Shown here one piece after another: positions 5,046-38,570 of a DNA stretch of 64,000 nucleotides. This DNA is from Escherichia coli (GTDB lineage: Bacteria; Pseudomonadota; Gammaproteobacteria; Enterobacterales; Enterobacteriaceae). The notes under the pieces are model-generated. The model searched no databases. It was not told the DNA's origin and saw only the letters and a program-made list of their open reading frames with translations. The stretch is from NCBI RefSeq assembly GCF_044324875.1, contig NZ_CP172186.1; one strand, given 5' to 3'. The position numbers were made by a program, and so were the translations under genes. Each line of letters opens with the position of its first letter. The stretch's first letter is position 1.

Positions 5046-5471
5046 ATGCAGTATGCGAAACCTGTCACCCTGAACGTTGAAGAGTGCGACCGCCTTTCTT
5101 TTCTGCCTTACCTGTTTGGCAACGATTTTCTGTATGCCGAGGCGTATGTGTACGCGCTGGCGCAAAAAATGATGCCGGAATATCAGGGAGGCTTCTGGCA
5201 TTTCATCCGCCTGCCGGACGGTGGCGGTTACATGATGCCGGATGGCGACCGTTTTCATCTGGTCAACGGTGAAAACTGGTTTGACCGCACTGTGAGTGCT
5301 GATGCCGCAGGCATCATTGTTACGTCTCTTGTGATTAACCGCCAGTTGTGGCTGTACCACGACAGCGGGGATGCGGGACTGACACACCTGTACCGGATGC
5401 GTGATGCGCAGTTGTGGCGTCACATCGAATTTCACCCCGAATGCAACGCGATTTACGCGGCACTGGACTGA
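5046..5471 (+). CDS. klcA: antirestriction protein KlcA/ArdB family
   Basis: 141 aa from MQYAKPVTLNVEECDRLSFLPYLFGNDFLYAEAYVYALAQ..., recalled KlcA/ArdB signature. Confidence 0.75.
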   Translation: MQYAKPVTLNVEECDRLSFLPYLFGNDFLYAEAYVYALAQKMMPEYQGGFWHFIRLPDGGGYMMPDGDRFHLVNGENWFDRTVSADAAGIIVTSLVINRQLWLYHDSGDAGLTHLYRMRDAQLWRHIEFHPECNAIYAALD

Positions 5472-5517
5472 TTAACGGACGGGGCGGCAATGCCGCCCCT
5501 GTAAAGGAGACGAGAAC

Positions 5518-5937
5518 ATGTACTGTACTGTTAAAGAAATTATCCGCGAAGTGCTGAATACAGACGTGCCGGACAGTGAATGTGTTTTTGCCGTGGTGCT
5601 GACCCGCGGGGATGTGCGCCACATAGCCCGGGACTGGAACCTGTCAGACGATGAGCTGGAAACCGTCATGCAGCGGCTGGACGATGCTTTTGTATATGGC
5701 GCATGTGACAGAGTTGTTTCCGATATTGTCAATGAACTGATGGAGGAAAAGCGCGTAAACCGTCTTGTAACAGTTCCTGCGGTGCTGCTGGAAAAAGTGA
5801 TGGTGATGGCTGGTAGTGAAATTTATCGCCTCCATGCTGTAGGGAGCGAGAACGGGGGCGACGGTGACGCATTTGTCAGGGAAGAACGTGAGATTATGCG
5901 GGTAATGCGTCAGGCGCTGGACGGGGAGAACGGGTAA
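5518..5937 (+). CDS. leading-region hypothetical protein (paralog of 3382..3816)
   Basis: 139 aa; RBS GGAGACGAG. Confidence 0.6.
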   Translation: MYCTVKEIIREVLNTDVPDSECVFAVVLTRGDVRHIARDWNLSDDELETVMQRLDDAFVYGACDRVVSDIVNELMEEKRVNRLVTVPAVLLEKVMVMAGSEIYRLHAVGSENGGDGDAFVREEREIMRVMRQALDGENG

Positions 5938-6128
5938 TGAATATCAGCACGGAAACCCGCGAAATTCTGCGTAATTACAGGGCCGTGATTAATGCGCGGC
6001 GTCGTGAAATGGGGCAGAAACCGCTCACCACCGCGCAGATTGTTGATGAAATCTGTGATTTTGTGGCGAATCAGCAGGCGGTTTTCCTCGGTGGTCACTA
6101 TATCCTTCAGGGCAGCAGGCACAGGTGA
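5937..6128 (+). CDS. hypothetical small protein
   Basis: 63 aa, start overlaps previous stop. Confidence 0.35.
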   Translation: MNISTETREILRNYRAVINARRREMGQKPLTTAQIVDEICDFVANQQAVFLGGHYILQGSRHR

Positions 6129-6289
6129 TACAGGGGCAGGCGGTGGAGGCCGCCTGTCAGCCCGCGCGAAAACCCCTGGCAGGCTGGCGCCTGCCGGAAG
6201 GGATGCGGGCCACGCTGGCGCGTCGCCCGTTACCCTTCCTGTTGGTGACAGGCGTTGTTTCAGGAAGTACCTGTTACAGACCTGTCGTT

Positions 6290-6875
6290 AAAGAACCTTC
6301 TTACACATGCGCCCCTTCGGCTCCCGGCTGCCTGGCGGCATCCGGTCGTCAGGCCCGACTCCGACAGGCAGCTGCTGGCGCACCCGCCAGTCTCCGCCGA
6401 ACCCGCTGGCGCGGTTTCGGGCTGTCGCTACGGTCCGATGCGTGAAAACCCGGGCTTGCAGCGACCGTTCCGGTCGCGCCGCCTCTGTCGCGCCGTGACC
6501 TGCGCTCCCTGCACACCTGACGGTGTGTGAGGAAACTGCGCCTGATGGCGCAGCAGTCCTCCCTCCTGCCGCCACCTCTGCGGCCTGTTTCCCGCTGTGG
6601 ACTTTCCGGGGGGCAGACGTAACCCCCTCCCGTTCCATCTGTCCAGGGTGAGATGCACCGGCCACAAAATTTTTAGCCATGAACCCGGCAAAAAATTTTG
6701 CGTCCGCCCCCGGACAGCTGCCCCGTGAGGCGGTAAACGGGCCCCCATCGGAAAGGTCCACTGCGGGGAGAAACCCCTGTGAAGTGGACGGCAGGAGGAG
6801 CTTTCGCTCCTCTGAAGGGGCACATGAACGTCCCGTCGCCGGTATCCGGTTTATCTCACATCTTTCAGTCAGGAG
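6290..6875 (+). promoter_or_regulatory. single-strand-promoter-like structured element, family B copy 1 (upstream of ssb)
   Basis: ~580-bp GC-rich repeat also found at 17935..18505 and, 3' part only, 20990..21380; contains CCACAAAA(C/T)TTTT...GCGTC(C/T)GCCCCCGGACA(G/A)CTGCCCCGTG core. Confidence 0.5.
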
Positions 6876-6881
6876 GTTCTT

Positions 6882-9800
6882 ATGAGTGCACGTGGTATCA
6901 ACAAGGTCATCCTCGTCGGGGTGCGCCGTTGAAGCGCGGTGTTTTATGGAGTGTTGCCTGAAAAGCAACATGGCTTAGTGGTATAGCCATTGCATACTGT
7001 GGTTAGCCTTGCTTGGTAACAGGCTCGGAGATCCTGAAAAGGAGAGGTGAACATAGCATCCACAGAAAAGGGTGGTGAATATGGAAATCGTTATAAGTAT
7101 CACCATTCAATGCAAGATGTATATGGATAAACTGGGTTTGTTGAAGTCGAGATCTATGTGGGAAACAGGAAACCAATAACGCAGAACGATTGAAGCGTTA
7201 TTCCCGTACTAGCACAAGAAATCCGTCCGACGTTGATTGTGACCACTCTAACGGGCCAGCTATTGATGAAATAGTTAAACGATCGAAAGACATCCTAAGT
7301 ACATCGCATCTCCACACCGTGAAACTACGGGACTACCTAAACTGGATTTATACCCAGCATGGTAGCGGAGTCTCCATAGTACTCAAGGTCGGCCTGTAAT
7401 GGGTTCCGGCAGTCCGCATTATACGGAAGCAGCAAAGGTATAAATCAACCGGAAGGAAGATGAAAGCCTCACAGTGCTGCGGGGAAGGGAGACAGTTGTT
7501 AGATACATCAATCTCTAAGAGGAGGGTTAGCCAATGCTGCCTGATGAACTTGAGAAAAGATTAGATGGAATTGAGGATGCTTCAAAAAAAGGGTATCCAG
7601 TACGTAATCTATACAAAATTGCGTGTGAGCCCGGACTGTGGCTGCAAGCCTACGTGAATATACGGGCCAATGCAGGTGCACTGACTCAAGGTGTATCAAC
7701 AGATACCATTGATGGCTTTTCTATCGAAAGAGCAGAGAAGCTGGCAAAAACATTGCGGAGTAGAGAATACGTAGCGAAACCTGTACGCAGAGTTCAGATC
7801 CCAAAAAAGGACGGAAAAACCAGACCGCTGGGGATTCCAGGTGGAGACGATAAACTGGCGCAAGAAGTAGCAAGAATTATTCTGGAAAGGGTTTATGAAC
7901 CAGTATTCTCTGAACACTCTCATGGATTCAGACCAAAACGTTCGTGTGAAACTGCGCTCAGATCTATTCGTCCAGTCTGGAACGGAGTTAAATGGATCGT
8001 GGATGTTGATATCAAAGGTTTCTTTGACAATATCCCCCACAAACTATTGCTGAATACACTGGCAGAGAAAATTAAGGATAAGAATTTCCTGAAATTAATC
8101 GAACAGTGGCTGAAGGCAGGATATGTGGACAATTGGAAATACCATCGCTCATATTCTGGCACGCCACAAGGTGGGATAATTTCTCCCTTACTGGCAAATA
8201 TATACCTCGACAAACTGGACCGTTTTGTAGAACAGAATTTAATTCCTGCATATACAAGCGGTACAAAACGAAGAGCGAATCCAGATATGAACAGGCTGGC
8301 CCATAAGATTCATAAACTACGAAAGAAAGTAGACGGTATGGCAACTGATTCTGAATCAGAAAAAGAAGCCATAAAGAAAGAAATTGAACGACTGCTTGAA
8401 GAAAAACGTTCTATACCATCTCAGGTCATGAACGATCCAAACTTCAGGCGTATGTACTATGTTCGATATGCTGATGACTTCGTAATCGGTGTCATCGGCT
8501 CGAAGAAAGATGCTGAACATATATCAAGACAGGTCAGAAACTTTATTACTACTTCACTGGGATTGGAAGTTAATGAAGCAAAGACCAGGATCCGCCATAT
8601 CTCAGAAGGAGTTAATTTTTTAGGCTATGAAATCAGACAGGCAGATGCAAAGAAATTGCTGAAGCAGAAAATGCAAGGGCGGCACGCTCTCCGGAGATCC
8701 ACCACAGGAATTGTGCAGCTCTTCGTTCCTGACAATATAGCCGCTAAATTTTGTCACCAAAAGAAATATGGCTGTTATGAGAATGTGAAGGCTGTACATC
8801 GTTCAAGTCTACAAAATCTCAGTGAAGCTGAAATTGTTCTGACTTTCAACGCGGAAATGCGCGGATTGGCGAACTACTACAGTCTGGCGCTGGACATGAA
8901 ATATAAATTATCAAAATTATATTTCATATGGCAAATAAGCCTTTTTAAGACCCTGGCGAATAAACGACGTAGTTCAGTGAATAAAGTCGCCAAATCGCTA
9001 CGGCAAAATAATGGAGATCTGGCTATTACCGTTCAGGCCAAAAATGGATCCCGAAAGATTGAGGTTTTCAAACTCAAACATGTCAATCGCAACCGAACAA
9101 CGATTGTCGATACGGAACCGAGAACCGCACATATCACAACCCGCACAACAGAGATCATGCGTCGATTAGGGGCAAGGATCTGCGAGTATTGTGCGAAGAC
9201 TGGGCGCTGCGAAGTACATCATGTCAGAAAGCTAAAAGACCTGAAGAAAGGTCGTAAGGCCGGATATAAACCCAGCTTGTGGCAACTAATGATGATCGCA
9301 CGCCGCCGGAAAACGATGATTTTGTGCGCAAGTTGCCACGACAAGTTACATAGCGGAAAACTACCCGATTTGAGACAGGAAAAGGGAAGAATACTCCTGC
9401 AACCACCTGTCTCAAGCGGGGATTCTGCTAAATGAGTTTATCCCCAATAAGCTAGCAATGGAGAGCCGTATGCACTGAAAGGTGCACGTACGGTTCGGAG
9501 GGGGGGTAACGGTGATCTAACTCAAGATAAGCAGGACATATTCGCCATTTATCTTGAAAGACCACACGTACCCTACCCTACCGTCTGGGCAATGATCCGG
9601 AAGTCTGTTACATCCCCAACGGGGGCGCAGTGGCAAACCTGCAGGTCGCCACGTCAGAAAGCTGGCGCGACAAACAGACGGGGGAGATGCGGGAGCAGAC
9701 GGAATGGCACCGCGTGGTGCTGTTCGGCAAGCTCGCGGAAGTGGCTGGTGAATATCTGCGCAAGGGCGCGCAGGTCTACATCGAGGGGCAACTCCGTACC

Positions 9801-33193: not shown

Positions 33194-34765
33194 TTACTGA
33201 GAGCTCAGATCAACTTTCCAGGGCAACAGATCGCGTACCCGGTTTGCCGGCCAGTCCTGGATATGTTCAATGACGTAACGCAGCCACTTTTCTGGCTCCA
33301 CATTGTTCAGACGGCATGTGCCGATCAGCGAGTACAACACCGCCGCATGTTCACCACCGCTGTCGGAACCCGCGAACATCCAGTTTTTCCGGCCTACGGC
33401 CACTCCCCGTAAGGCGTTCTCTGCGATGTTGTTGTCGATTTCCACCCAGCCATTACTGCAGTACACGTTCAGTGCATCCCACTGTTTCAGCAGGTATGCG
33501 AACGCTTTTGCCGTATCTGAGTGACGCGACAGTGTTTTCATCTGTTGCTGTATCCAGTCATACAGTGACTGCATCAGTGGCGCGGCTCTGGCTTTTCTTG
33601 CCGCCAGACGCTGTTCTGCTGAACAGCCCCGGACCTCTGCCTCGATGGCATACAGTTCACCGATACGCTGCAGGGCTTCCGTGGTGATGTAGGTGGGCGC
33701 TCTTGCATGCACATCGTGGATTTTTCTCCGGGCATGAGCCATACACGCGGCTTCCGTTATTCTGCCGGATTCGTATAACGCCCGGTAACCACCGTAAGCA
33801 TCGGCCTGAAGCACACCGCTGTAACCGGCCAGGTGATTTTGTGGATGGATACCTTTCCGGTCCGGACTGTACGCGAACCAGACCGCCGGGGGCATCTGTG
33901 AACCGGCGTTACGGTCATCACGGACGTAGACCCACAGCCGGGCTGTCCGGGTTTTACCGCTGCCCGGCTCCTGGACCGGGACGGGGATATCATCAGCATG
34001 GACTTTACCGGGCATCAGCACATACTGGCGCAGGACGTCATACAGCGGCTCCAGCAGTTCAGCAACAGCACCTGTCCAGCGCCCCAGTGTGGCACGGCTC
34101 AGCTCCACTCCCTGACGACGGTATATTTCTGACTGGCGGTATAACGGCAGATGGTCTGCATATTTCCCGGTGACAACATGGGCCAGAAGCCCCGCTCCGG
34201 CATAACTGCGTGCAATGGGTTTTGAAGGTACTGGTGCCTGCACGATATGGTCGCACCGGCAACAGGCCTGTTTCGGACGTTGTGTTTCGATAACCTTAAA
34301 GGCGCTGCTGATAAGCTCCAGTTGCTCTGACACATCACATCCCAGAGAACTGAGTTCACCACCACAGGCAGGACAGCATTCCTCTTCCGGCCGGATAACC
34401 CGGGTTTCACGGGGAAGTGAGGCCGGTAACGGTTTACGGGCTGAAGACTGGCGCAGGGCGGATGGCAGTACCGGGTCATATTGCTCACCCAGCGTTTCCG
34501 CCATTTCTTCCTGAAGTGCGCTGATTCGCTCCTGTGCTTCCTGTATCTGCCGTTCGGTTTTTGCACGAAGTTTTTCTGAGCTTTTACCGAACTGCATACG
34601 TTGCAGTTTCGCAACCAGCGCCTTCAGCCGGTTGATTTCGGAAGCATAAGCCGCCACCCGCTGTGAGAGCAGGCGGTTGTATTCAGCCATCTGGCGGATG
34701 GTGTCCTGTTGCGTCTGCAACAGTGCCCGCAGGCGGGCGTTCTCATGAGCAAGTGAGGTGTCCAT
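33194..34765 (-). CDS. IS66-family transposase (TnpC)
   Basis: 523 aa with leucine-zipper N-terminus and CPACGG zinc motif, typical IS66 TnpC. Confidence 0.85.
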
Positions 34766-34784
34766 ATCCTCACTTTACAACGGG

Positions 34785-35132
34785 TTATATGCGGATTCCA
34801 GCGCGTTCCGTTCGTTTCGGGTGCTTCCAGTTGATACCTTCAAGAAGCATGGATAACTGAGCCGGAGTAAGGTGCACCTTGCCGTCACGGGTGACTGGCC
34901 AGACGAAGCGGCCCCGCTCCAGGCGTTTGGTGAAGAGGCACAGTCCGTCACTGTCAGCCCACAACACTTTTATCTGGTCACCCCGGCGTCCGCGGAAGAT
35001 GAACAGGTGTCCGGAGAACGGGTCATCCTTCAGGACGTTCTGAACTTTTGATGCCAGGCCGTTAAAGCCATTTCGCATATCGGTGATACCTGCAACCAGC
35101 CAGATACGCGAACCTGCAGGGAGAGATATCAT
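34785..35132 (-). CDS. IS66-family TnpB (orf2)
   Basis: 115 aa MISLPAGSRIWLVAGITDMRNGFNGLA... Confidence 0.85.
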   Translation of the reverse strand: MISLPAGSRIWLVAGITDMRNGFNGLASKVQNVLKDDPFSGHLFIFRGRRGDQIKVLWADSDGLCLFTKRLERGRFVWPVTRDGKVHLTPAQLSMLLEGINWKHPKRTERAGIRI

Positions 35133-35809
35133 CAGTGGCTGCTCCCTTTTATTTCGCGGATAAGTGTCTGTAATAACGCCGGCGTCAGTTTACCTTTAAG
35201 CCTGAGAGTTCCGGCCGGCAGAACCAGCTCACAACACAGACTGTCGGACGGTGTATTTATCTGCTCTGGTTCCTGTGCGGGGGCCGGGATTTTATTATCC
35301 GGCTCCGGCGTTAACGTCACGGGAAGCAGTGCCGGCATATTTTTTCCGGAAGGCAGCAGGCCACCTTTCCGGTATTGATGGCGCCAGTTGAAGAGCAGGT
35401 TATCGTTGATTCCGTTTTCCCGGGCGATCTGCGCCACACAGGCTCCGGGCTGCAGTGACTGCTCCACTAAGGCGATTTTAAACTCATAAGGGAAGTTGGG
35501 CCGCCGGGGACGTTTTTTTACCACGGGGGCTTCGGATATAACGGTGCTTTCAGGACGTACGACTGGTACCGTGGAAAATTGTCCGTAAAGGCAGGCATCA
35601 AGTTCCTGCTCCGACATGCCTGCGGGCAAAGGCCACGAAAGGCCAGCTCTCCGAAAGCGCACGAACATACTACAAACTGTTGATTTTGGTACACCCAGGC
35701 GACGCCCGGCCACAACCCGGGGTAAATGTTCTTCAAAGTGAAGACGTAAAGCTTCAGTGATCCAGGTCCGGTGTTTCATACGATAGTGTCCATTAAAAAT
35801 GATGGACAT
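35132..35809 (-). CDS. IS66-family orf1 (TnpA-like HTH protein); start uncertain
   Basis: First ORF of the three-gene IS66 arrangement. Confidence 0.7.
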   Translation of the reverse strand: MSIIFNGHYRMKHRTWITEALRLHFEEHLPRVVAGRRLGVPKSTVCSMFVRFRRAGLSWPLPAGMSEQELDACLYGQFSTVPVVRPESTVISEAPVVKKRPRRPNFPYEFKIALVEQSLQPGACVAQIARENGINDNLLFNWRHQYRKGGLLPSGKNMPALLPVTLTPEPDNKIPAPAQEPEQINTPSDSLCCELVLPAGTLRLKGKLTPALLQTLIREIKGSSH

Positions 35810-35855
35810 TATTTTTGTAGAGCCGGAGGAAACAGACCAGACGGTTTAAATGAGC

Positions 35856-36042
35856 CGGTTACTTCCCGACAGACGACTCGGTGAAAAAAGTGGTGTGGCT
35901 GGCAATCCAGTCTGCGTCCCGGAAATGGACGATGCCGTTGAAGGACTGGCGAATGGCAATGAGCCGCTTTATTATCGAGTTCGGTGACCGCCTGGACGGT
36001 CACTTCTGAGAAAGGCATTTACACAGAATCTTAAACAGGCTC
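35856..36042 (+). mobile_element. IS256-family element, second right-end fragment (inverted relative to 26601..26854)
   Basis: Reverse complement of 26601..~26785 including transposase 3' end. Confidence 0.7.
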
Positions 36043-36086
36043 AAGTGAAGCTAAGCACACAATCAATTCAGGTCTTTGACATCCTC

Positions 36087-36151
36087 CATCTTAACTTCCA
36101 AAGGGTACTCCCGCCGACATAAGGCGGGAGTACCCTTTGGAAGTTAAGATG
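36087..36151. repeat. perfect 29-bp inverted repeat with 7-bp loop
   Basis: CATCTTAACTTCCAAAGGGTACTCCCGCC-GACATAA-GGCGGGAGTACCCTTTGGAAGTTAAGATG; flanked by 13-bp direct repeats TTGACATCCTCCA at 36076 and 36254. Confidence 0.6.
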
Positions 36152-36296
36152 GAAAACCGACATAAGAACCCTCTGTTATCCTGAAACTCTTATATTTATA
36201 TAACTTGTGAAGGCGTTATGCACACAACCAATCTTCGCAAAGTCGGCGTCTCGTTGACATCCTCCACGCCCTGACGAATGTGGAGGAATGTCAATA

Positions 36297-38570
36297 TTAA
36301 TGTCCGGGCCACTCCTGTTGTTCAGTGACGTGATGTGATATTTCTTCTTTAGCTGTAGCCTCATTCTGGAGGTTTGAAGTAAATATACGCTCCATTGTTT
36401 GTGCAACCGATGGTGGCATTTTTTCTTCCACACGTTCCTCTTCCGGACAACTCTGTGTGATATAGCATACGTGCCGTTCTTCCCGGGATGTGGTATTGAT
36501 GATGTGAACTGCCTTGTTCCACAGGCTGTTTCCCCGGGCAGAGATATCTGTATCATATTGCGGAAGCAGATCCAGCGATGTTTGTGTTTCGTTAAGCTGC
36601 TTCTGGAAGGTATCGATGATACGGTAAGGCTCTGTACGGTTTTTACGACGTTTACGGGATGGTTTTGCTGTCAGTACACCAATAATGCTGCTGACATGCT
36701 CCGGTGTGGGAAAACGGCGCTGCACTGTCCTGGGGACGAGACGGCGGAGACGCTCCAGGCGGGGGGCTTCAACGGAAATATAGCGGTTGATGACCACCGG
36801 ATCACTGTCGCAACTTTTCTCGCTGTCCGGAATATACACAGAGGCTGACGGCACCACATCCCCCTGGAAAACGGTAAAGAACTCACCGGCATTCAGTCTG
36901 ATCAAATCCTGCACGTCGATTTTGCTTTCCATCTGGATGGTGATCTGGTTACCGTCCACCCAGGACTCACCCATCACACCATCGTGGCGCTGCAGGCTGC
37001 CCATTCTGGCCCGAGCCTCTTCACCGGCGGCATTTTTCACCGTTCTTGCCGTTTTGTCGTCACTGACAATGCGTCCGGCGAATTTGGTGCCGGCGTTCTG
37101 CATCAGTGTGGCGGTGTTGGTGGCGGAGGTCTGCCCTTCAATTCGCTCCTGATCCTGCGCCATCATTATCAGGGAAAACTCCAGTGAACGTACCTGGGTG
37201 GCCTCCACAGCAATGCGGTCTGTGTAGTAGGCACCGACTTCGTCAAGGATACAGATATAGGGGAAGCGGCCTTTGTATTTTTTTACTTCCAGGGTCTGTG
37301 CGTCTGTGCCTTCCAGGCGGTAGCCCAGGTCACGGGCGAGGATCATGCTCTGCTGGGTGATGAACATACGACCGAGTGCCGACGTGGTATGGGCTGATGT
37401 GTCCAGTGCGGGGATCATCACAATCAGAATTCGGTCGCTGTGGATACTGTCGCGAATATCGATGTCGCCGGCATCTGCCGCAAAGACGTCCCCGAAGGTT
37501 TCGGCAAAGGTTGTGAATGTTTCCGAGAACTGACCGGAGAGATAAGCATGCTGTTTACGGGGCTCCTCAGTCCAGGCTGACGGCGTTCTCACCAGTGACA
37601 TATCGAATCCCGGAACGTCCTGCAGGTAATTTCTCAGTGGTGCGATGGCTTCTTCCGGCCACTGGTCATCAAGCCCACGGCAATAGAGTTTTGCCATACC
37701 TTCCAGCGTCATATGCTCCCGTAACATCTGCAGGGACATGGTTTTTCTTTCCCGGACGCACCAGAATTTTGTGCCAAAGACCAGGGCTTTGTTCATGGCT
37801 ATCGCCCGTGACTGCCATTCACCCCCCTGAACGTTCTGGGGAAGCATGGACTGCATGGTTTCGGCGGTGAAGGCTTCGGTGCTGAATGCGAACGGGTTCC
37901 AGGTGTTTGACTGTGGGCGGGATTTTTCGCCGCTCTGAATGATTTCACTGCGGGATTTTCCGCCGTTCATGAAGTTGATGACCTCGATATCATCCTCCCG
38001 GCCAAAACGTCGGGAGAGATACCAGATTGTCCTCGTGGTATCGTTCTGTGCCTTTCCGTCAACAAAGGTAAAGCCTCTTCCCCAGCAGAGAGGGTTGAGC
38101 AGCCAGGCAAAGGTGGTTTCTGTTTTACCGCCACCGGTGGTGGAAAAAAATATGATATGCCGGGTGAGGTCATCCATGCTCAGCCAGAGCTCACGACCGA
38201 TATCGTTGATACGGCGGTAACCGACATAAAAAATCCCCCGTGCGGGGGATGTTTCATCTGCTTCATACTGAAACAGGGTGGGCCAGAAGCTGAAGAGGCT
38301 TCGCCTGACCTTTCTGTCCTGGGAGGGGTCATCAAGGCTGAGCGTCATGGGCATACGCAGGGGGCATCGCCAGCGTTGCAGCGTGAATATCACGGAGGTG
38401 ACCAGGGTGAACAGCAGACAGACAGGAAGGGCCAGTGGCCATATCAGGGCCGTAATGATACTGCCGGCCAGACACAGACCAATGATGTTCAGGTTGTGCA
38501 GTGCATTCCACAGCGGGTTTCCCCAGGCCGTGCGGTGTATGAGGTCAGGATTAACGTGATGCTGGCTCAT
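36297..38570 (-). CDS. trbC: TrbC, conjugative coupling-type ATPase (N-terminal membrane segments, Walker A)
   Basis: 757 aa; ...FFSTTGGGKTET... Walker A; size/order as IncI1 trbABC. Confidence 0.8.
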   Translation of the reverse strand: MSQHHVNPDLIHRTAWGNPLWNALHNLNIIGLCLAGSIITALIWPLALPVCLLFTLVTSVIFTLQRWRCPLRMPMTLSLDDPSQDRKVRRSLFSFWPTLFQYEADETSPARGIFYVGYRRINDIGRELWLSMDDLTRHIIFFSTTGGGKTETTFAWLLNPLCWGRGFTFVDGKAQNDTTRTIWYLSRRFGREDDIEVINFMNGGKSRSEIIQSGEKSRPQSNTWNPFAFSTEAFTAETMQSMLPQNVQGGEWQSRAIAMNKALVFGTKFWCVRERKTMSLQMLREHMTLEGMAKLYCRGLDDQWPEEAIAPLRNYLQDVPGFDMSLVRTPSAWTEEPRKQHAYLSGQFSETFTTFAETFGDVFAADAGDIDIRDSIHSDRILIVMIPALDTSAHTTSALGRMFITQQSMILARDLGYRLEGTDAQTLEVKKYKGRFPYICILDEVGAYYTDRIAVEATQVRSLEFSLIMMAQDQERIEGQTSATNTATLMQNAGTKFAGRIVSDDKTARTVKNAAGEEARARMGSLQRHDGVMGESWVDGNQITIQMESKIDVQDLIRLNAGEFFTVFQGDVVPSASVYIPDSEKSCDSDPVVINRYISVEAPRLERLRRLVPRTVQRRFPTPEHVSSIIGVLTAKPSRKRRKNRTEPYRIIDTFQKQLNETQTSLDLLPQYDTDISARGNSLWNKAVHIINTTSREERHVCYITQSCPEEERVEEKMPPSVAQTMERIFTSNLQNEATAKEEISHHVTEQQEWPGH

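Follow-up and report, generated by a model that had tools for sequence, protein, structure and literature searches.

Where does a long perfect palindrome in the spacer beside a plasmid transfer gene come from, and does it serve any purpose there? The question is raised by a stretch of 64,000 nucleotides from Escherichia coli (contig NZ_CP172186.1), the whole of which is referred to here as the window, and in which such a sequence lies next to trbC. An earlier note, made from the sequence alone, described a perfect palindrome with arms of 29 bp and the loop GACATAA in the spacer before trbC, and suggested abutted ends of a tiny mobile element, a recombination site, or a protein-binding site. 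The palindrome is real and its loop is confirmed by a repeat finder, but its arms measure 31 nt. Because trbC is encoded on the minus strand, the spacer lies downstream of the gene and not before it. A mobile element is indeed involved; however, what was taken for the abutted ends of a tiny element corresponds to two inverted copies of one end, the left end, of an element of 1818 bp.

The palindrome occupies positions 36085-36153 of the window, with arms at 36085-36115 and 36123-36153 that match each other with 100% complementarity on either side of the 7-nt loop, which appears inverted, as TTATGTC, on the bottom strand. As single-stranded DNA, the palindrome folds with an energy of -38.8 kcal/mol (z = -14.8 relative to shuffled sequences), and either strand behaves alike. 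In Rfam, no family reached its gathering threshold on either strand; the only match, mir-5984, scored 52 bits against a threshold of 95 and was rejected as an identity, being a sub-threshold artefact that any long hairpin can produce. A telomere-resolvase site was also considered, on the grounds that the 8-mer GCACACAA is part of N15-type tel sites, and was dropped, as no other feature speaks for it.

The origin of the sequence follows from a search with positions 36076-36160 against PLSDB plasmids and 5426 E. coli genomes. The search for other copies in enterobacteria, which the earlier note had proposed, yielded both partial matches and whole units at other loci. In PLSDB, 175 records matched, about 18 of them over the whole palindrome, while the E. 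coli set gave 118 records (113 of the 5426 genomes), about 15 of them over the whole palindrome. The remaining matches comprise one arm, the loop and 8 nt, and are found on plasmids of many types and in chromosomal genes. These partial matches are the edge of an insertion that carries divergent genes for an IS200/IS605 transposase of 134 aa and a TnpB of 408 aa, with the Pfam domains Y1_Tnp and OrfB_IS605 plus Cas12f1-like TNB, respectively. This 1818-bp element of the IS200/IS605 family is labelled IS-A here (reference copy at L004 4005-5822), and its TnpA has the accession WP_001175008.1. It starts with CTTAACTTCCAAAGGGTA-CTCCCGCC-GACATAA-GGCGGGAG-GGGAATTTGGA and ends with GGGGGAGGATGTCAA.

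When IS-A is compared with the whole window by BLAST, its nt 1-41 match positions 36090-36130 and its nt 1-26, inverted, match positions 36148-36123, both with 100% identity. No IS-A sequence was found by this comparison outside 36090-36148 of the 64-kb window, hence no copy of tnpA or tnpB and no right end of IS-A. Consequently, the palindrome can be described as LE/LE', that is, a left end and its inverted copy centred on the left end's own hairpin. Judging from these matches, it is very probably the fossil of an IS200/IS605-family insertion sequence, and the fuller explanation, according to which it is an LE/LE' scar of IS-A at a deletion junction, is considered probable.

The insertion habits of IS-A were deduced from its copies elsewhere. 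The tetranucleotide CCAT stands directly 5' of every one of eight copies, complete or with internal deletions, which are located in pdeB, a tail-fibre gene, IncI2 plasmids, the chromosome of K. pneumoniae ATCC 13883, Photorhabdus, phage If1, and a 4-kb Salmonella plasmid. The insertions in pdeB and the tail-fibre gene are preceded by CCAT and, after the terminal TCAA, followed by GGCG and TAGT, respectively, with no target duplication. The halves of pdeB sum to 146 + 371 codons only when CCAT is counted as flank, and its reading frame is regained on removal of exactly 1818 bp. It follows from this codon arithmetic that IS-A inserts 3' of CCAT without duplication. BLAST did not find the inverse of the left terminus within IS-A, which means that the element has no terminal inverted repeats. 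In the window, each strand of the palindromic unit reads CCAT followed directly by CTTAAC, which is the canonical target-to-left-end joint of IS-A.

These properties, namely a subterminal hairpin with a tetranucleotide in the flank and neither duplication nor terminal inverted repeats, are those of an IS200/IS605 left end. In IS608, cleavage on the left takes place in the flank, 19 nt upstream of the hairpin foot, at a site recognised by four guide nucleotides on the 5' side of that foot (PMC3201880). IS-A is similar: CCAT lies 18 nt 5' of the left hairpin foot, within the range of about 18-19 nt of the IS608/ISDra2 type, and the putative guide GGTA is parallel-complementary to CCAT as AAAG is to TTAC. 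The hairpin at 36108-36130 is presumed, by its position and fold, to be the one bound by TnpA. The likeness extends to the right end, which finishes with TCAA 10 nt 3' of the foot of its hairpin. In contrast to IS608 and ISDra2, the target is CCAT and not TTAC or TTGAT, and the window has the first 41 nt of the left end and the inverted first 26 nt, without tnpA, tnpB, or a right end. The feature in the window is thus not a complete IS200/IS605 element, which needs a Y1 TnpA.

No formal name was found for IS-A. IS683 was considered and is a different element, and one paper terms the copy in pWF-5-19C just "an IS200 element". A full copy, 97% identical over 1.8 kb, is present in phage If1 (NC_001954.1, approximately 5311-7137; L017 3205-5031) 3' of GTTGCCAT, in a region that the record labels solely as "major intergenic region" and "ORF348". 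If1 is an I-pilus-specific single-stranded filamentous phage of cells carrying I plasmids, and it is a plausible vehicle for a single-strand transposon. In Photorhabdus khanii NC19 (L013 2688-3224), a derivative of the family has an internal deletion that joins nt 1-565 to nt 1765-1818 and keeps both ends; by its structure, it is a candidate non-autonomous mini-IS. The features of the window and the loci with equivalent units are collected in the table.

Table. Features in and around the palindrome (window positions) and equivalent 59-bp units at other loci
Feature	Position or locus	Strand	Basis or remark
IS66-family element, left bound of spacer	approximately 33194-36042	-	Pfam: 523-aa DDE transposase, 115-aa TnpB_IS66, 225-aa HTH ORF
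Flank of remnant 1, paralogous to 36205-36253 (flank of remnant 2)	36043-36075	-	Local alignment; repeat family D4
Right-end remnant 1: last 13 nt (TGGAGGATGTCAA) of IS-B right end, cut short by the event	36076-36088	-	Intact in pRM10042
CCAT, target and left cleavage tetranucleotide joined to plus-strand left end	36086-36089	+	CCAT before 8/8 copies
LE/LE' palindromic unit, 59 bp (CTTAAC...GTTAAG)	36090-36148		26 nt of IS left end + 7-nt loop + 26 nt inverted; BLAST of 1818-bp element
GGTA, presumed guide for CCAT	36104-36107	+	4 nt 5' of hairpin foot; geometry fits IS608 rule (PMC3201880)
Native left-end hairpin, stem CTCCCGCC/GGCGGGAG, loop GACATAA	36108-36130	+	Same in full copies L004, L005, L011, L017, L018; fold
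CCAT (plus strand ATGG) joined to inverted left end	36150-36153	-	First backbone base common with palindrome-free plasmids
Right-end remnant 2, imperfect hairpin beside trbC stop; 3' terminus 36254-36266	36254-36294	-	L015 right-end match; fold
trbC, 757 aa, 3' end bounds spacer	36297-38570	-	ORF list; Pfam TraG-D_C; trbC annotation in homologous plasmids
Perfect unit, pEC16-2 phage-plasmids	L006
Perfect unit, C variant in both arms, Klebsiella plasmid	L007
Perfect unit, C variant in both arms, Klebsiella plasmid	L008
Imperfect unit, Arsenophonus plasmid	L009		Native GGGAATTTGGA kept 3' of hairpin; outer arms 13-bp
Perfect unit, G/C change in both arms, metagenome contig	L012

Insertion sequences have piled up in the spacer downstream of trbC, with IS66-family, IS3, and IS605-family elements as well as restriction-modification and toxin-antitoxin cassettes in related plasmids. 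The right boundary of the IS66-family element can be placed at approximately 36042, many plasmids matching 35800-36042 alone; the first ORF of this element (225-aa HTH) is unusually long. Sibling plasmids differ from the window to the left of 35863. In one of them, pE16-3, identity with the window stops at this position; the astA (EAST1) gene annotated there is absent from the window and was rejected as a neighbour of the spacer. The earlier note had proposed a comparison with IncI1 reference plasmids and had allowed that the palindrome might be universal at this position in IncI plasmids as part of a known terminator. The closest typed plasmids are IncK2/Z, which belong to the I-complex but are not IncI1 proper, and the palindrome is not universal among the relatives compared. 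The 3' end of trbC together with the spacer was found in just 13 PLSDB plasmids, of which 10 carry the palindrome, one more carries it with an extra 2.7-kb insertion, and two, pRM10042 and pA16EC0070, are free of it. In NZ_CP033633.1 (132418-135209), about 2.7 kb lie between the palindrome and the trbC-proximal spacer, and homology resumes at window position 36160.

The palindrome-free plasmids make it possible to define what was replaced. In pRM10042, the nearest relative without the palindrome, the left side is common with the window up to TTGACATCCTCCAT. On the right, homology with both pRM10042 and pA16EC0070 resumes exactly at ATGG, position 36150 (alignment with coverage from position 30 of the query 36120-36520). 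Between the same CCAT and ATGG, pRM10042 contains exactly 200 bp, which include the right end of a second element, IS-B, and a 3' remnant of its tnpB. The comparison therefore indicates that 200 bp between CCAT and ATGG changed to 59 bp between the same two tetranucleotides. Because the lost segment included the IS-B end, the last 13 nt of that right end now abut the palindrome. A 10-nt sequence, CCGACATAAG, occurs twice, at 36114-36123 in the loop region of the left end and 43 bp rightward at 36157-36166. It was rejected as a microhomology of the event, since it is already present in the pRM10042 backbone, away from the junctions, and since, by a rough estimate, chance alone would produce about one repeated 10-mer of this kind per 1.4 kb. 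The second copy in the backbone is older than the palindrome and probably due to chance, although its position is striking.

IS-B is the label used here for a tnpB-only relative of IS-A in the IS605 family, and it accounts for the 13-bp direct repeats that the earlier note had reported on either side of the palindrome. The repeat TTGACATCCTCCA is located, as described there, at two sites 178 bp apart (36076-36088 and 36254-36266). It extends to 16 nt with one mismatch, and the repeat finder gave the longer versions TCTTTGACATCCTCCA and TCGTTGACATCCTCCA at 36073 and 36251. Taken as its reverse complement, the repeat is TGGAGGATGTCAA, a right-end terminus. The left 13-mer runs on, in pRM10042 (IncI-gamma/K1), into the full right hairpin and approximately 118 bp of the tnpB 3' end of IS-B; about 400 plasmids match this stretch up to TCAA and no further, and a complete IS-B ending with GGGCGTGGAGGATGTCAA is present in L015. 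The second 13-mer belongs, again as described, to an imperfect hairpin at 36254-36294 (-11.9 kcal/mol, z = -4.0), of which it forms the 5' arm and whose end lies 2 nt away from the stop of trbC (36297). This remnant matches the right end in L015 at 27 of 31 nt, the last 19 of which (AGGGCGTGGAGGATGTCAA) are exact.

On the strength of these sequence matches, both 13-mers are regarded as old right-end remnants of IS-B on the minus strand and not as a target duplication. The reading of the repeats as a target-site duplication fails because they are right-end termini and the right copy lies 100 bp off the palindrome, whereas a MITE with a target-site duplication would have direct repeats abutting both its ends. 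The flanks that follow the two remnants (36043-36088 and 36205-36294, minus strand) are themselves paralogous, sharing AGAC, ATTGRTTGTGTGCWTA, and CTTCAC in this order with a 13-nt indel. This indicates that the right end was duplicated together with approximately 45 nt of flank as one unit.

Equivalent 59-bp units were found at five other unrelated loci, so that six contexts are known together with the window. The left flank is CCAT in all six, and the right flank is ATGG in five and ATAG in one. In pEC16-2, compared with about 80 related plasmids (including pLR-48_2), 166 bp in a small ORF are replaced between CCAT and ATGG. In the first of the two Klebsiella plasmids (L007), homology to ColE1-like plasmids on the left stops exactly at CCAT, and homology to other plasmids on the right begins exactly at ATGG; in the second (L008), the sequence on the left comes from within IS2. 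The Klebsiella units share their C variant (CTTAACCTCC) with a full IS-A copy in a Klebsiella chromosome, and in general the arm variants of the units track local variants of the IS. The native GGGAATTTGGA kept in the Arsenophonus unit points to a different crossover point. For the Arsenophonus and metagenome units, no close relative without the unit was found.

Each replicon carries one unit. Pattern scans found no unit in 100,044 species-representative genomes, none in viral contigs, and one among 241 million records from metagenomes. With a looser pattern anchored on the flanks, a single match was obtained, which has no palindrome, lies within a coding region, and was set aside as chance. 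In the metagenome contig (L012 9020-9370; ERZ1026846 NODE-235), the palindrome, here with the flank ATAG, joins the start of a leftward gene annotated as a recombinase to the middle of a rightward serine-recombinase-like gene, which suggests a junction created by inversion or deletion.

The matches to IS-A, the two junctions, the segment that was replaced, and the repeated occurrence of the unit elsewhere are seen directly. The route of formation inferred from them, in which two left-end joints are followed by collapse through slippage, is offered tentatively, its chances being judged somewhat below even. In this route, TnpA would make left-end joints at two CCAT sites of opposite orientation. 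The two joints would give a tail-to-tail inverted pair of IS-A sequence, which would form a long snap-back on one strand. Replication would then slip across the foot of this structure where the left end has its first internal palindrome, with slippage at GGCGGGAG yielding the perfect type and slippage at TTTGGA yielding the Arsenophonus type. After the collapse, 26 + 7 + 26 nt would be left, and the host DNA between the CCAT sites would be lost. The centre of the observed unit falls in the internal palindrome of the left end.

Formation of this kind would resemble the nearly precise excision of Tn10, which, as Foster et al. reportedly described in 1981, leaves a short palindromic remnant through slippage between short repeats near the base of a snap-back. 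In both cases, a short palindrome follows the deletion of a long inverted-repeat structure. However, Tn10 has inverted IS10 copies, whereas the inverted IS-A pair is postulated, and 166-200 bp of host DNA are also lost here. Simple fold-back or microhomology is less likely, because the palindrome stops at the IS boundary plus target in all six contexts and no extra flank is copied. Template-switch mutagenesis at quasipalindromes, reportedly described by Ripley in 1982 and by Lovett's group, could perfect the native imperfect hairpin (TCCAAA-GGGTA-stem / stem-GGGAA-TTTGGA) and keep the arm variants symmetric. On its own, however, it leaves unexplained the exact ends at the IS boundary, the CCAT on both sides, and the deletion. 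Since the symmetric arm variants could also come from such correction, they are no proof of de novo origin.

Several points bear on how the two joints of the proposed route would be made. A non-systematic search for the intermediates, namely a tail-to-tail IS-A pair or a longer palindrome, found none. That two insertions should occur independently within 166-200 bp of each other is improbable, yet six scar contexts were seen against about a dozen distinct full-copy contexts. Consequently, both joints were probably made in one concerted event. Since transposition of the IS608 type is directed at a single strand, the lagging-strand template, an inverted second joint close by is awkward for the proposed route. 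In the hairpin form of the perfect palindrome, the GGTA guide is base-paired.

The alternative that survives best treats the 59-bp unit as a non-autonomous mobile element in its own right, with TnpA supplied in trans cutting at CCAT on both strands and pasting the unit between inverse CCATs, the DNA between them being lost. The presence of the same or nearly the same units at six unrelated loci with such regular flanks is what this explanation would lead one to expect. In addition, the right-flank sites resemble genuine IS-A targets (TTCCAT, TGCCAT) and not arbitrary microhomology, the Arsenophonus form has a bubble that would free the GGTA guide from pairing, and two left-end joints followed by host removal of a 5' flap would yield the observed product. 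Nevertheless, this alternative is considered unlikely. The unit occurs as a single copy per replicon with no amplification, and the scans found it in none of the representative genomes, in one of the metagenome records, and in no viral contig. It is without the right end or TCAA cleavage site that IS608-type excision needs, and its bottom-strand loop is inverted. Furthermore, its variants track host-specific IS variants, as expected of local de novo origin.

It is also very improbable that the palindrome is a selected plasmid element, such as a terminator or RNA stabiliser for the trbABC transcript or a protein-binding or recombination site. Its hairpin is very stable on either strand, it lies approximately 140 nt beyond the trbC stop, where transfer genes converge, and it is unchanged in about 12 plasmids. 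However, these carriers are near-identical and mostly chicken plasmids, so that retention reflects recent common descent, and the palindrome is missing from two of the 13 plasmids that share this spacer and the 3' end of trbC. The earlier note had already argued that the palindrome is not an ordinary terminator, and this is borne out: the scan of 35800-36500 detected no terminator-like site on either strand and no promoter-like site, the sequence shows no T-run, and the palindrome is not an intrinsic (Rho-independent) terminator. The same sequence occurs at non-homologous loci, including the inside of a disrupted ORF and the inside of IS2, and the IS end accounts for the whole of it. The unit is most likely inert now and without present function, given that it has no right end, that no copy of IS-A or its transposase is present in the window, that terminator features are missing, and that close relatives do without the palindrome. 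Residual effects are conceivable from its sequence: trbC transcripts that read through may form a strong hairpin, the DNA may extrude a cruciform or be sensitive to SbcCD, and TnpA, if it entered the cell, might nick the site.

Still less credible is the idea that the minus strand from 36153 to 36076 is a miniature PATE-like IS, bounded on the left by the junction of CCAT and CTTAAC and on the right by the end of AGGATGTCAA, and mobilisable as one unit. The minus strand does read CCAT, CTTAAC, and so on to GTTAAGATGG-AGGATGTCAA and then AGACC, with TCAA at a distance of 10 nt from the long hairpin's foot, and the stem is followed by the very 10 nt that follow the native right hairpin. However, the whole 85-nt stretch is found in one context only (11 PLSDB records, all of the same locus), and the right-end hairpin and its 5' guide are missing. 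TnpA reads the hairpin tip, which is here 32 nt and not 10 nt from TCAA, and a left end landing on a CCAT inside an older right end explains the arrangement.

Known families of short derivatives were also compared with the unit. PATEs and MITEs derived from IS200/IS605 elements are likewise short, non-coding, hairpin-forming derivatives of the ends (PMC3119063, PMC7290912), but PATEs combine a left and a right end in multiple copies without host deletion, whereas the unit in the window combines two left ends, occurs once, and stands in place of lost DNA. The neighbouring TGGAGGATGTCAA comes from the older right end of IS-B, which pRM10042 has as well, and the units, at one locus per record, took the place of 200 bp and 166 bp. 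REP sequences are also hairpins related to IS200/IS605 ends, and BIMEs pair two of them in inverted orientation (PMC3333891, PMC8266576). In contrast to the unit in the window, REPs are present in hundreds of chromosomal copies with a RAYT and a conserved 5' GTAG; the matches in the 113 E. coli genomes are nearly all plasmid-borne and mostly full IS copies. Finally, although library artefacts such as chimeric hairpin reads can create perfect palindromes, an assembly or sequencing artefact is a negligible prospect, since different laboratories have independently assembled at least 12 complete plasmids with the identical sequence and variants of it occur in Klebsiella, Arsenophonus, and a metagenome.

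The scar reading is thus retained. The palindrome itself is explained by known biology, that of IS200/IS605 ends, and the recurrence of the LE/LE' scar is the only mildly novel aspect. According to the usual description, elements of the IS200/IS605 family leave no trace at donor or target sites. The present observations contrast with this seamless model: the LE/LE' unit is found at six unrelated loci, five of these have the target tetranucleotide on each side of the unit, and both cases that could be checked show a loss of host DNA. A limited literature search found no description, for this family, of an LE/LE' scar that replaces the DNA between inverted targets. LE/LE' between target tetranucleotides may be the signature of an undescribed side reaction of the Y1 transposase, in which concerted joints at two inverse targets replace the intervening DNA (200 bp here, at least 166 bp elsewhere) with a 59-bp hairpin unit, a proposal that is judged less likely than not.

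For the host plasmid, the finding is of little consequence, as the palindrome is debris. For annotation, it carries a warning that long perfect palindromes in enterobacterial plasmids can be scars of IS ends and not regulatory sites. If the units do arise in one TnpA-dependent step, the IS200/IS605 family, the source of the TnpB nucleases, has a deletion-forming side reaction. Such a reaction would produce precise local deletions and novel plasmid junctions, and the 59-bp signature would be useful for annotating plasmid rearrangements.
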